Positions 10,699 through 55,271 of a DNA stretch of 64,000 nucleotides are shown here, one piece after another. This DNA is from Octopus vulgaris (Eukaryota), in contig OX597827.1 of the NCBI GenBank assembly GCA_951406725.2, positions 65,286,001-65,350,000 of the forward strand, in the 5' to 3' direction. The stretch's first letter is position 1; each line of letters starts with the position of its first letter. Under the pieces are notes generated by a model that worked only from the letters and a program-made list of their open reading frames with translations, was not told where the DNA came from and made no database searches. The translations under genes and the position numbers were made by a program.

Positions 10699-11035
10699 AC
10701 CAATAAAGTTAGGGGTTGTTGGTCCAATCTAATAAGGGATAATATTTATCCGATATACTGTTGGTATAATACCCAATTATAAATACACAAGTGTTTTTTT
10801 ATTGCATTGCAATTAACTTACCTACTGTATTAAATGGGAGATGGTAAAGAAATATTTTACTATTAATTTATATTGCTAATAAGAAAATGGAGAAGCACAT
10901 TAGTTGGTTCATCAACTTTAGGACGAGATACTTTTATCTATAGACTGAAACAGCTGTAAGTGATTTTAATAATTTATATTCATGTATTTTTATAACTGCT
11001 TGTATTCTTAACTTATATGCATAGAATAATATACT
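10699..11035 (+). mobile_element. (TA)n-flanked short element with degenerate hammerhead-like motif
   Basis: Bounded by TA/ATGT repeats; contains gaaacagctgta (GAAA + palindromic stem III + GUA) between atcaact/agtgat; upstream core degenerate. Confidence 0.4.
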
Positions 11036-11254
11036 ATATGTATGTATGTTATTATTGTTGTCGTTTTGATAAATGAATAAGTCAACATTTTAATGTCCTA
11101 CTGGCCTTCTGCTAAAATTTGAAACCTGCTAACATTTGAAATGTGGGTATACTCAACAATTCAGATAGCTACAAAACTGGAGTAGCTAAATCGCATGCCG
11201 TATGTGTTAACACATAATATCAATATAACTCACTATTAGGGGCTTGTCCTGTAA

Positions 11255-11395
11255 GGCTGCGTGTTCGCTGAATCGTTAGCACAGCCCAAAAAATAATTAG
11301 AAGCATTACGTTCGTCTTTACGTTTTAAGTTCAAATTCCGCCAAGGTCGAATTTCCCTTTCATCTGTTCGTAGTCGATAGAATAAAGACCCATCC
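11255..11395 (+). mobile_element. degenerate SINE family B
   Basis: gaatcgttagcac...agttcaaattccgccaaggtcga. Confidence 0.7.
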
Positions 11396-12508
11396 AGCAG
11401 AAGTCTCTACGTACTTATATTTTATAGTCTAGGACATCGTCTCCCAAGACTTCTACTTGTGTACCATAATTTGAAAGCGATATTTGTGTTATTTTGGTGC
11501 TAATATTGTATTTCGGTGCTAAAATGAATTATAAACTAGTCGCCCTCGTTCTCTGTGGGTGATATAATGTCTGGTGTGTCTAACCGAAATGTTGTTGACA
11601 TCAGTGTTTTCCATTTTGTCCCATATCGGCTTGGAAATTGACGTTTGAATAATAACACAAAAATAATGAGCTCTCTACACTTTAGTACAAAATCGCATTA
11701 CAAAACTTGATTGGTTTCGTAGCATAATTCCATATAACTAATTGTTTCAGGGTAATGCTATAAAACAAAATTATTTTCGTGTACAAGTAGAAAGAACTGA
11801 AATAATTGTATATATATATATATATATATATATATACGTTATGTACTTAAGTTGAAGCATCAAATCAGTCGGGTATTGGGGTATTATCCGCATAGGTCGA
11901 AATAAGGTGAATAAAATAAGTAACAGGATGTCAAGATGTCAAGTAGTAATATACTACGACCTTTTCAAGGGCCTCTATATAATTGAACAATGTAATTATG
12001 GCATCAATTTCAATCAGCGCTATCTTCGACTGCAAGAATTATGGATATTCAACAGACAAGATTAATAAAAATTTTAAAATATGTTTTAACAGAGAAAGAG
12101 GATGAAAAATTTCATGTTGTCACTATTGAAGCAAGAATAGCTAAGAGACGAACAAACTACAAATTTTAGAGCGGCATGGAACACATGGGGGGTGGTCATA
12201 GAGTAGTAATTTACTTCCAGTTTTGCTATCTCCTTATCAACAACAAAGAATCTAAGACTAGAAGACAGCGTTTATTTAGAATAAAGAAGAAAGTGAATTG
12301 GGACCTCAACCTACAAGAAAAACAAATAAAACATTAGAAAGAGTCAATTAGATAGCAGTAAATGTCTATAAAAGAGGTAGTGTAGGGGTGACATTAATTC
12401 ATGACGATGTTACCAGTTAAAGGGGCATACACTATGAAACTTTCGATGCTACTTAGGATGTTTGAGGAAAACATTAGGGGCTCAATGGAAAAAACATTTA
12501 TAAACAAT

Positions 12509-13070
12509 AGGCGTAGGAGTAGCTGTATGGTAGTAGCTTGCTTACGAACCACATGGTTCCTGGTTCAGTCCCACAGCGTGGCATCTTGGGCAGGTGTCTT
12601 CTACTATAGCCACGGGCCGACCAAAGCCTTGTGAGTGGATTTGGTAGACGGAAACTGAAAGAATCCCGTCGTATATATGTATATGTATATATATATATAT
12701 TTTTTTTTTTTTCTTTATCTAAAAGCAACAGAAATTCAACAAAACTTGTTACTCGGAGTTTCCCGTTCGTCGGACAGTTTGGTATTTGAGTACTCTTTTT
12801 TACCACCTTGTTTCACATTTATGTGTTTACTCCGGTCTATATATATACATAAATATGCATGTATATGTGTTTCTGTGTTTGTCCCCCAAACATCGCTTAA
12901 CAACCGATGCTGGGGTGTTTACGCCCCCTTAACTTACCGGTTCGGCAAAAGAGACCGAAAGAATAAGCATTAGGCTTACAAAGAACAAATCCTGGGGTCG
13001 ATTTGCTCGACTAAAAAGGCGGTGCTCCATCATGGCCACAGTCAAATGACCGAAACAAGTGAAAGAGTAA
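12509..13070 (+). mobile_element. SINE family A with nested insert in its internal microsatellite
   Basis: Full head aggcgtaggagtagctg... to tail gtgaaagagt; interrupted at about 12700-12838. Confidence 0.9.
12747..12776 (-). ncRNA. minimal type-I hammerhead ribozyme motif (stem II absent)
   Basis: Minus strand ugu-CCGACGA-acgg-GAAAC-uccga-GUA-aca. Confidence 0.5.
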
Positions 13071-13152
13071 ACATTATTATGTTGTGTAAAAAGTAAAAGT
13101 TTAAAAATTCTAGAAAAGGATATCATAACCAGTTTCGCTAAGATTGATATAT

Positions 13153-13600
13153 ACTCTTTTACTCTTTTACTTGTTTCAGTCATTTGACTGCGGCCATGCT
13201 GGAGCACCGCCTTTAGTCGAGCAAATCGACCCCGGGACTTATTCTTTGTAAGCCCAGTACTTATTCTATCGGTCTCTTTTGCCGAATAGCCAAGTGACGG
13301 GGACGTAAACGCTCCAGCATCGGTTGTCAAGCAATGCTAGGGGGACAAACACAGACACACAAACACACACACACACACACATACATATATATATATATAT
13401 ATATATATATATATATATATATATATAATACATACATATATACGACAGGCTTCTTTCAGTTTCCGTCTACCAAATCCACTCACAAGGCATTGGTCGGCCC
13501 GGGGCTATAGCAGAAGACACTTGCCCAAGATGCCACGCAGTGGGACTGAACCCGGAACCATGTGGTTGGTTAACAAACTACTTACCACACAGCCACTCCT
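13153..13600 (-). mobile_element. SINE family A, full length
   Basis: Reverse complement of family A including (gtaaaaga)n tail and internal (CA)(TA) tract. Confidence 0.92.
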
Positions 13601-52800: not shown

Positions 52801-53217
52801 AGCGCAACCATATTAAACAACCAAGTGATCTGAAACGCCGTTTCACAGAGCCAACGCTACTGTGTTATTTATATGATTTACACATTTAACTTCTGTCTTA
52901 AATATGTGTCCTTGCTGTGAATGTACTAAGCATAGTATTTACATGATATGAATATCGATATTTATTGTTTTGCCTATTGTTCTTGCTTTCTGAAATGTTG
53001 TATATTTGTTAGGTGTTCATAAGAAATACGTCACTACGTACGTTTTAATATATTGTTGTATTAGTGATTGAATGACAAATGCAGTAAGAAATTATACATA
53101 TATAGACACACACACAGAGAGACACGTATATATATACGTATATATCTGTACATATTTATGTTTGTTTGTGTGTGTGTGTGTGTGTGTGTGTGTGTGTGTT
53201 TGTGTGTGTTAGGTATT

Positions 53218-53662
53218 TACTCTTTTACGCTTTTACTTGTTTCAGTCATTTGATTGCGGTCATGTTGGAGCACCGCCTTTGGTTGAGAAAATCGACCCCA
53301 AGACTTATTCCATTGAAAGGCTAGTACTTATTCTATCGGTCTCTTTTGCCGAACCGCTAAGTTACGGGGACGTAAACACACCAGCATCGGTTGTCAAGCG
53401 CTGTTGGGGGACAAACACAGACACACAAACATACAAACACACACACACACACACACACACACACACACACACACGCATCTATATATATGCATATATACGA
53501 CGGGCTTCTTTTCAGCTTCCGTCTACCATATCCAGTCACAAGGCTTTGATCGACCCGAGGCTATAGTGGAAGACACTTGTCCAAGGTGCCACGCAGTGGG
53601 ACTGAACCCGGACCTATGTGGTTCGTAAGGAAGCTACTTACCACTCAGCCACTCCTACGCCT
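53218..53662 (-). mobile_element. SINE family A flanked by ~150-bp direct duplication
   Basis: Full-length SINE; 53059-53219 repeated at 53664-53808. Confidence 0.92.
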
Positions 53663-54290
53663 ATATTAGTGATTGAAAGACAATCACAGTAAGAAATTAT
53701 ACACACATACACACACACAGACACGTATATATACATATATATCTATACATATTTATGTTTGTATGTGTGTGTGTGTGTGTGTATGTGTGTGTGGGCATTA
53801 GGTATTTATTGAATTTTTTTTTCAAAATTGGTAAGCCAAGTAAACAAAGCTTGTATATCACCGATAGAAACATGTCAAATAATAATATCACAACCGTCAC
53901 GACCATCAGCAGCATTAACAACAACAATGACAGCGATCAAAATCCCCTCCCCCAAAACGTCTGGCCTTGTGCCTAGAAGTAGAAAAGATAATAAATGTTG
54001 ATGCAAAACTACGTCAGAGGTGTACTCGAGGGCACTTTGATGTTGGAATTCAATTGTTGTTGAACATATAGCCCCCAATGTAAAGTTACTCAAGAGTACG
54101 CAAACAGAGATTCATATAATACATACACACGTACGCACTCATAGATACAAACGTACACGCATGTGCTTATCATATATACGTACATACCGATGTATATATA
54201 AATATATAAATACATACATATACATACATACATATACATACATACATATATATATATATATATATATATATATATATATATATATATATA

Positions 54291-54730
54291 TAAAAAAATA
54301 GTAAAGTGTGAAAAACGACAGAAGGCTTAAATGTTAAAAAATATATATATTTGTGTCAAAATGTCTGGAGAATATTGGAAAAATTTTTTTCCTTTCCTTA
54401 AAATGACATAATTTTAAAATTTTTAAAGAAATTACCGGTTTCGCGTGTAGCTTCAAATTTCTTGTGACGTTATGTTTATATTGCATGGAATTATAATATA
54501 AACATAACGTCACAAGAAATTTGAAAAGCTACACGCGAAACCGGTAATTTCTTTAAAAAATTTTAAAATTATGTCATTTTAAGGAAAGGAAAAAAATTTT
54601 TCCAATATTCTCCAGACATTTTGACACAAATATATATATTTTTTAACATTTAAGCCTTCTGTCGTTTTTTCACACTTTACTATTTTCTTATATATTCACC
54701 CACGTGCTTTACCAAACAAACTTTCTTATC
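54291..54730 (+). mobile_element. (TA)n-embedded fold-back element with ~190-bp arms carrying a hammerhead
   Basis: 54291-54482 is the reverse complement of 54495-54690; unique tail 54691-54730; (TA)n on both sides. Confidence 0.88.
54514..54553 (+). ncRNA. minimal type-I hammerhead ribozyme (U3-A8 variant)
   Basis: aagaaau-UUGAAAA-gc(uacac)gc-GAAACCGGUA-auuucuu: 7-bp stem I, palindromic stem III ACCGGU, GUA site. Confidence 0.7.
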
Positions 54731-54797
54731 TATATATATATATATATATATATATATATATATATATATATATATATATATATATATATATATATGT

Positions 54798-55271
54798 ATA
54801 ATAGAAATATTAAAATTACTAAGTCTCTCTAAAGGAGATTACGGCAGCGTTACTGGAAATTAATAGTTATCGCCATACTAATATGGCACTCTTATAAATA
54901 TAAGACTAAAGCTGTCGCTGATTAGCTCCATGAGGCCACCGCCTCAAGCTAGATATTTATCACACAAACTGCGTCCATTATAAACCTTCGGACAGGGGAG
55001 GTCAGCCGCTTCATCCTGCCAGTCAGACAGCTGCAGACATTGTTTCAGGGTATCTGCCCTTTATCAATGCAGCGTAGTCAGACCCAGCAGGTGTTGCTAC
55101 TGACTGTCCCTGTTCGAAGAATCTATTTACCTAGTTTCAGTGGAATACATCCACTTGTTTTCAATAATAGAAATATTAAAATTACTAAGTCTCTCTAAAG
55201 GGGATTACGGCAGCGTTACTGGAAATTAATAGTTATCGCCATACTATTATGGCAGTCTTATAAATATAAGA
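54798..55271 (-). mobile_element. retrozyme-like 1.3-mer (366-bp unit, 108-bp terminal direct repeat)
   Basis: 54798-54905 repeated at 55164-55271 (3 mismatches); internal hammerhead; no ORF; (TA)n on the left. Confidence 0.75.
55030..55073 (-). ncRNA. type-I hammerhead ribozyme (U3-A8 variant)
   Basis: Minus strand gcugca-UUGAUAA-aggg(cagaua)cccu-GAAAC(aau)GUC-ugcagc; all three stems pair. Confidence 0.82.

Follow-up and report, generated by a model that had tools for sequence, protein, structure and literature searches.

A 64-kb window of the 2.8-Gb genome of Octopus vulgaris (contig OX597827.1, positions 65,286,001 to 65,350,000 of assembly GCA_951406725.2), AT-rich and dense in microsatellites, contains several motifs resembling hammerhead ribozymes, which an initial annotation placed in islands abutting (TA)n tracts. 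This raises the question of what these motifs are, how they came to lie near the TA tracts, and whether their carriers expand these tracts. The evidence below makes it very probable that they are minimal type-I hammerheads in the 3' pseudo-long terminal repeats (pLTRs) of TA-targeting Penelope elements, of which most copies are 5'-truncated ends. Hammerheads in Penelope elements, TA targeting, inverted pairs, tails and the covariation of the U3-A8 pair are already published, and the observation as first stated is known biology; the unusual part is a family with a fixed A6U core that is under hammerhead-like constraint.

Hammerhead motifs in the window and in the genome

We used a relaxed type-I descriptor (helix I of at least 4, helix II of at least 2, and a palindrome score of at least 0.7), which was tuned with the motifs of the initial annotation already known; it was applied besides to a random sample of 100 stretches of 10 kb (1 Mb) at round coordinates. 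The window gave 6 matches versus a mean of 0.15 (maximum 2) in 100 local dinucleotide shuffles, and the random sample gave 32, 39 and 54 matches at three stringencies versus 0–2, 0–2 and 2–6 in five shuffles. The predicted excess over dinucleotide-shuffled sequence is thus at least 10-fold in both. Intact motifs are spaced one per 19–31 kb in the random sample, which extrapolates to about 90,000–150,000 motifs genome-wide. This is in contrast to 9,000 in Xenopus (Cervera and De la Pena 2014, PMC4209133). However, 126,247 type-I motifs are recorded for the axolotl (PMC7229834), and hence the abundance in octopus has a precedent.

When one position of the descriptor was relaxed at a time, G5, A9, G12, A13 and A14 proved near-fixed, position 7 free and position 4 either U or C, and G17 was found in only 1 of 33 matches. 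The proposed variation of the core was upheld, and the 3-8 pair covaries, being C-G in 22 and U-A in 10 of 39 matches. Position 6 was A in 32 matches, U in 11 and C in 1, with all 12 non-A cases coming from one family. Covariation of the stems, likewise proposed earlier, is seen in family C (see below for the families) in an alignment of 14 rows that were chosen to show variants and whose relatedness is uncontrolled: 98% of the cells are paired, all three helices covary, both partners have changed in 4 of 13 pairs, and none of 500 shuffles reaches the observed score.

These results bear on the simplest alternative, namely that AT-rich repetitive DNA yields such motifs by chance and that their proximity to TA is trivial. 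TA tracts are indeed dense, with 35% of random window positions within 250 nucleotides (nt) of one; one descriptor match (21826-21872) looks like chance; for four of the motifs, Rfam reports no hammerhead at E<=10; and the monomer folds are unremarkable (z −2.5 to +1.5). The silence of Rfam is, however, expected for minimal motifs, and monomer folding is uninformative for motifs of the dimer type. A search of the whole window with Rfam likewise gave no hammerhead family among the 150 of 394 matches listed, these being driven by microsatellites. The excess over shuffles, the near-fixed core positions alongside a free position 7 and the rarity of G17, the stem covariation and the 3' polarity of the TA tracts (see below) leave this alternative hardly any credence, and it is refuted for every motif except a chimeric one at 10911-10964.

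All five motifs that had been called clear were recovered by the descriptor at their coordinates and strands. Four of them are complete minimal type-I hammerheads, namely 46526-46560 (+), 46767-46814 (−), in which the palindrome has a single mismatch relative to its own family, 54514-54553 (+), and 55030-55073 (−), in which the palindrome carries a 1-nt insertion. The fifth, 12747-12776 (−), lacks helix II, which was removed by a short deletion, present in 3 of 35 family E motifs tallied. Of two motifs considered decayed, 43737-43769 (−) is a genuine old copy of family G (71–79% identity, core CUGUUGA). The other, 10911-10964 (+), is instead a chimera across an inversion junction at 10924/10925, with 10911-10924 being an inverted piece from the 3' end of a family H element, and the sequence from 10925 onward the 3' half of a genuine hammerhead family with a long helix II (family H). 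The descriptor additionally detected an inverted hammerhead pair, 60636-60678 (−) and 60722-60762 (+), that had been overlooked.

Dispersed repeat families carrying the motifs

Every motif belongs to a dispersed repeat family, and we distinguish at least eight (A to H), all with a fixed 3' end and variable 5' ends; the view that many sequence-divergent, unrelated families are involved was therefore correct. Exact pattern matches number 16,952 for G, 10,571 for A, 6,838 for E, 627 for D, 504 for C, 84 for B and 69 for F, counts that depend on the strictness of the pattern and the age of the family and are not copy numbers. By homology the eight families together account for 78 merged pieces per Mb, or about one per 13 kb, close to the earlier estimate of one element per 10 kb.

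The minimal type-I core (CUGANGA..GAAA..UH with the 3-8 pair, helices I and II and a palindromic helix III) is found in families B, C, D and F, as had been anticipated for Penelope-type hammerheads. Family A and most of the listed forms of the family E subfamilies deviate from it by U4C; in family A, C4 occurs in about 79 of the first 100 matches listed, as counted by eye. The octopus families resemble the pLTR motifs of PMC4209133, for which the minimal form, U3-A8, high family diversity, truncated single copies, opposite-strand pairs and low activity as dimers were described. Shared features are the short helix I, the palindromic helix III, U3-A8, an extra base between positions 9 and 10.1 in most families, the many divergent families per genome with mostly single truncated copies, and opposite-strand pairs 100–700 bp apart. 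Unlike those motifs, abundant octopus families have C4 (A, E) or U6 (G). Two supplement files of that paper contain no octopus entry, and we found no survey of octopus Penelope hammerheads in the literature.

Further variation was observed within individual families. In family A, U17 is present in all 8 motifs of the random sample, and the subfamily in the window has C17. Among the matches listed for family E, the −1 base of helix II, the loop and the core covary as discrete subfamilies, and about 15 head-to-head pairs, centred just 5' of the hammerhead, occur in the first 100. In family H (loci L395 and L397) about 95 nt, forming a long branched helix II, separate CUGAYGA from GAAA; this hammerhead escapes descriptors limited to 40 nt, and its helix I pairing looks imperfect.

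Association with Penelope coding sequences

Families D, G, F and B extend upstream into coding sequence for a reverse transcriptase (RT) and/or a GIY-YIG endonuclease. In family D an open frame of 811 amino acids lies directly upstream of the pLTR, in copies at 99–100% identity, and contains the motifs GxKF and DKG, the RT core (Pfam RVT_1, E=2.9e-7, above the cut-off), a CX4CX2C linker, and a GIY-YIG domain with an internal CxxC. The open frame of family G, about 0.7 kb upstream of the motif, has YIDD, the linker and GIY-YIG, and is 27% identical to that of family D. A CX2-5CxxC linker together with two cysteines inside GIY-YIG is thus present in both, in G as judged from a partial frame. At 5 of 30 loci of family F, remnants of coding sequence lie upstream in the same orientation. 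Family B encodes the C-terminus of an endonuclease with CxxC and CxH around the conserved E and N, as in the Hydra type of Craig et al. 2021 (PMC8557442); no RT was seen in the stretches examined, and the full frame, which lacks the internal CxxC, is from a relative with 73% amino-acid identity. In family A, 820–860 nt of upstream sequence are common to 4 of 30 loci and align with G. Neither a listing of open reading frames nor tblastn revealed Penelope coding sequence within the window.

Partial pLTR tandems, an inverted 5'-truncated partner or a tail were seen in families D, C, E, F and H. These elements are similar to the endonuclease-positive Neptune/Nematis and Hydra elements in the C-terminal GIY-YIG domain, the zinc-finger motif of the linker, the (TA)n insertion bias, the inverted 5'-truncated partner and the hammerhead near the 3' end (PMC8557442). 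A tail of 30–40 bp at one end is given there, a length exceeded in family C (about 58 nt) and family E (about 70 nt). The octopus rows of the same paper's supplement, in two of the four places concerned, are for Naiad families and not for these. Judging from such sequence features, family D is an endonuclease-positive Penelope-like element of Neptune/Nematis type, and family B, with its endonuclease features and (TA)n targets, probably a Hydra-type element. The initial annotation had proposed a non-autonomous mobilome; this does not apply to D, G, F and B, whose short copies are truncated ends of coding elements. Family C looks like the one clear non-autonomous candidate, and A, E and H may be of either kind.

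A tandem array of family B (C22, period about 2.86 kb) proved non-coding. A Hydra-type endonuclease match at a distance of 1.1 kb from one copy of family C was rejected as its partner, the two being on opposite strands. As a separate observation, locus L394 (C3:125810600-125813500) has a frame of 330 amino acids in which an Asn/Thr-rich linker precedes a Hydra-type endonuclease; no RT is visible, and the frame directly follows the C-terminus of a Neptune-type endonuclease.

Insertion at TA tracts

In search-hit loci, 30 per family, the 3' end lies at TA in 29 cases for A, 23 for B, 26 for C, 30 for D, 20 for E and 23 for F versus a background of 4.1%, and in 22 for G versus 10.6%. The exceptions in family E are mostly copies with a long tail, and two of those in family C run into another unit. 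In the random sample the 3' end of family A is at TA in 14 of 15 cases, and 24 of 36 motifs have (TA)5 in the 200 nt that follow them versus a background of 13.9%, compared with 9 of 37 upstream. The enrichment of TA beside the motifs is thus real genome-wide and polar, and insertion at TA tracts is supported. What abuts (TA)n is the end of the element, as had been claimed for the islands; the motifs themselves are 48–236 nt from the nearest (TA)6. The family H copy at 10911 adjoins only a short TA remnant.

It had also been suggested that the elements expand the TA microsatellites. According to this alternative TA tracts are lengthened or created by the elements, through slippage of the RT on UA runs or duplication of the target, and the TA richness of the genome results from it. 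Beside young family D ends, pure TA averages 26 nt at the long end and about 33 nt at the short end versus 20 nt expected from a random split of a length-biased tract, and in 4 of 4 tandem flanks the element's own junction contributes just 7 nt of TA. A preference for long tracts that is steeper than linear would nevertheless yield the same excess. Moreover, only 75 of 1465 TA tracts per Mb (5%) touch any of the eight families, as against 134 for two control repeats, which we take to be SINE-like (short interspersed nuclear element) from sequence features. These data do not show that the elements expand the tracts, and we consider it unlikely.

A model for insertion

The family D insertion in the window consists, in order, of TA, an inverted copy ending at −35, a forward copy ending at 0, and TA. 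This arrangement is typical: among inverted partners of family D with the end in view, 9 of 11 end at −35, as do 11 of 12 in an overlapping sample. The two copies are joined at many different 5' breakpoints, mostly with an overlap of 1–11 nt. A short TA run of the element is present at each of the two end points, and in 22 of 23 distinct short ends the TA run is at least 10 nt, about 6 nt of it being element sequence. In family C the inverted partners mostly end about 58 nt short.

PAc, a Poseidon element of Anolis, cuts AT-rich DNA on both strands and uses two adjacent RT start sites that give rise to its tail, and its hammerhead cleavage is dispensable in vitro (Frangieh et al. 2024, PMC11167929). 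The 0 and −35 ends of family D match these two start sites, and they also match the inverted partner and tail that Craig et al. describe (PMC8557442). Target-primed reverse transcription at (TA)n, ending prematurely, is the likely origin of the short copies. In such a process the GIY-YIG domain might nick the tract on both strands, and each 3'-OH might prime reverse transcription of the pLTR RNA from either of two neighbouring start sites; in family D both sites would be UA runs, and base-pairing with the target may help. The two complementary DNAs could then be joined through the 1–11 nt overlap. The hammerhead would be carried along because of its location 100–190 nt from the 3' end. Its palindrome probably allows it to fold as a dimer, and its cleavage is probably unnecessary for insertion. 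Family C is likely to be a non-autonomous 365-bp rider on the same machinery.

The position of the 5' breakpoints is pertinent to the role of cleavage. Of 19 family D breakpoints, 1 is at position 0 of the predicted cut and 8 are within −34 to +52; with a query placed further downstream none of 19 is at the cut and 5 are at +48 to +101. A pile-up at the cut site thus seemed possible in the first sample and was gone with the second query, which is in line with the dispensable cleavage in PAc. In family D the hammerhead lies 169 nt after the stop codon, whereas that of PAc is at the start of the open reading frame (PMC11167929).

Several points weigh against the assignment to TA-targeting Penelope elements and the insertion model. 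TA is present on both sides of the junctions, and target bases are consequently indistinguishable from template bases; no empty alleles were seen. One of the control repeats ends at TA in 114 of 150 cases (the other in 26 of 107), and a TA end alone is therefore no proof of endonuclease targeting. The PAc start site lies in an AC-rich stem-loop and is not homologous to its target (PMC11167929), unlike the TA-run ends of family D and the pairing they would allow. The Pfam match of family D to GIY-YIG is under the cut-off (E=0.069), and most of the copies read are frameshifted. In the loci examined there was no linked frame with RT and endonuclease within 1.5 kb flanks for A and E, no coding link for C, and none for H, where each locus spans only 0.4 kb.

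Two further observations relate to family D. Two distant insertions (L322, C2:37.91 Mb, and L329, C1:206.44 Mb) have an identical inversion junction (−361/−846) with a tandem continuation, which implies that the composite inverted structure was itself recopied or duplicated. Sequencing runs assigned to five organism labels contain a near-identical end of the element, and this may point to transfer or to activity shared in recent times. Copies of family D are young (99–100% identical), and the family is a candidate for reconstituting TA-targeted priming.

Family C and the retrozyme alternative

Family C is a 365-bp non-coding unit with a partial extra unit upstream at 22 of 30 loci (two pairs of which overlap), in short arrays of up to about 2.3 units. 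It agrees with the definition of a non-LTR (long terminal repeat) retrozyme unit, i.e. non-coding, 150–400 bp, with a type-I hammerhead and in tandem. It might therefore be asked whether the islands in general are non-autonomous retrozyme-like elements, cut by the hammerhead to RNAs of unit length that may be circular and that a Penelope RT copies in trans. Family C, with its unit length, partial tandems and no coding sequence found, fits this. Molluscs are known to have non-LTR retrozymes of 170–400 nt (Cervera and De la Pena 2020, PMC7229834), retrozymes have been proposed to derive from pLTRs (bioRxiv 10.64898/2026.07.22.740005), and family E copies often begin just upstream of the motif. 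Yet the copies of B, D, F and G derive from the ends of elements with coding sequence, the breakpoints of D show no pile-up at the cut, none of 19 random pieces of family A starts at the cut site, and tandem DNA masters account equally well for C. Family C itself differs from the retrozymes of PMC7229834 in its Penelope-style inverted partners, TA ends, short arrays and minimal U3-A8 motif. We accordingly regard the retrozyme explanation as improbable and retain truncated Penelope ends as the explanation of the islands.

A fixed A6U core in family G

Cleavage by the hammerheads of Penelope elements is weak in vitro and dispensable for insertion in the sole reconstituted system, which raises the question of why they are retained. 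Family G, the most abundant hammerhead family of the genome with tens of thousands of copies, offers a natural test, as its core carries a change expected to impair catalysis and the remaining motif is conserved in a hammerhead-like manner. Its core is CUGUNGA, with U6 in 16,952 exact matches versus A6 in 198, contrary to the expectation of an invariant A6. In a tree of 81 rows with position 6 masked, from which 20 of 63 rows found by BLAST were dropped as the motif was absent, the branching is ladder-like and 40 of 78 inner branches are open. The A6 rows, 10 of 11 of which had been picked for A6, are scattered and look mostly like later mutations; three are close to family A, itself an A6 family, at the base of the tree where the branching is not resolved. 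On this sequence evidence A6 is likely to be the ancestral state.

In six subfamilies grouped from the tree, the youngest of them 2–3% diverged, only 2 of 36 motif columns changed, at N7 and H17, versus 56 of 123 flank columns. N7 and H17 are positions that the hammerhead leaves free. For copies found by their downstream sequence only, 3 of 36 motif columns changed versus 58 of 118, the third being G8 at a CpG in a 3-copy group; the same comparison with the downstream flank only gives 40 of 96 (p=1.5e-4), with the contrast inflated by T-rich flanks and non-independent columns. The source elements of family G probably keep the whole fold under selection despite U6.

No natural A6U hammerhead was found in print, subscription papers, figures and Repbase being outside the search. 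The known core variants A6C and U4C both have reduced activity; A6C occurs naturally in phage Bcep176, where cleavage is slow with a preference for Mn2+ (PMC3088659, PMC7151607). Family G likewise has a natural change at core position 6, but to U, which is fixed in a family of at least 16,952 copies. We tentatively propose, while holding the contrary somewhat more probable, that family G is a natural, selected A6U ribozyme, passed through at least six successive source subfamilies that changed only N7 and H17, which might still cut slowly or only with an element protein or an unusual metal ion. The same proposal would have low-activity cores (U6, C4) favoured in the most successful lineages, and pairing of TA on UA at two adjacent RNA sites setting both insertion ends. 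If family G cuts, many hammerheads are overlooked by the accepted core rule and by every descriptor-based count; otherwise, selection maintains the fold for a role other than cutting.

Organization of the window

The individual insertions illustrate these architectures. The family H insertion consists of an inverted 3'-end copy at 10836..10924 (−; 93% identity to the family 3' end), the source of the false 5' half of the motif at 10911-10964, and a forward 5'-truncated copy at 10925..11100 (+), which starts inside the long helix II and keeps only GAAA-CAGCUG-UA; intact copies have CUGAYGA about 95 nt upstream of GAAA. In family E a forward segment at 12713..12783 (−), with the hammerhead 12747-12776, ends near the TA tract 12672-12700, and an inverted 3' tail segment at 12780..12839 (+) terminates in TA. 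The old family G copy at 43625..43840 (−) is flanked by TA tracts, and its motif (43737-43769, U6) has a decayed G12 and helix I.

Two tail-to-tail arrangements share a tract. The 5'-truncated 3' end of family A at 46443..46658 (+) lies between the TA tracts 46415-46438 and 46661-46702; its hammerhead (46526-46560) has the core CCGACGA (U4C) and a predicted cut after 46556. The second of these tracts, (TA)21 at 46661..46702, is common to the 3' ends of A and B, the latter being the 3' untranslated region of the presumed Hydra-type element at 46704..47932 (−), which contains the hammerhead 46767-46814 and stops short of the coding end. In family D the inverted partner at 54286..54494 (−; 97.6% identity to the young family reference), ending 35 nt before the full 3' end, runs into the TA tract 54246-54291. 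The forward 3' end of this young, putatively Neptune-type family at 54495..54730 (+; 99.6% identity) is followed by (TA)32, and its hammerhead (54514-54553; UUGAAAA, U3-A8) has a predicted cut after 54546. Tail-to-tail with it, a full 365-bp non-coding unit of family C at 54800..55160 (−), with the hammerhead 55030-55073 (UUGAUAA), has its 3' end at the TA tract 54731-54794. A partial upstream unit at 55166..55271 (−) continues it head-to-tail beyond the unit length.

The overlooked family F pair (60422-60887) is head-to-head, with two hammerheads, and is disrupted by later insertions. It comprises an inverted partner at 60628..60679 (−; hammerhead 60636-60678), with a further piece at 60422-60511, and a forward 3' end at 60679..60887 (+; hammerhead 60722-60762, CUGAAGA). 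Its 3' tail is split by SINE-like repeats, and the same 15-nt stretch occurs near 60872 and again near 61231. Families G and A are also represented by short stubs of the 3' end, in which the truncation point is downstream of the hammerhead, at about 3900-3990, 20681-20733 and 49725-49786.

Other repeats in the window include SINE-like repeats with TA-rich tails (e.g. 13388-13600, 40053-40265, 48345-48557 and 62180-62573), with 159–172 matches per Mb each, and a 184-bp SINE-like unit present three times in tandem at 55577-56099. A transposase fragment, presumably mariner-like, is located at 14300-15300 (open reading frame 14489-14851), and a C-terminal RT fragment of a long interspersed nuclear element (LINE), which we take to be RTE-like, at 42142-42561, where it ends beside a TA tract.

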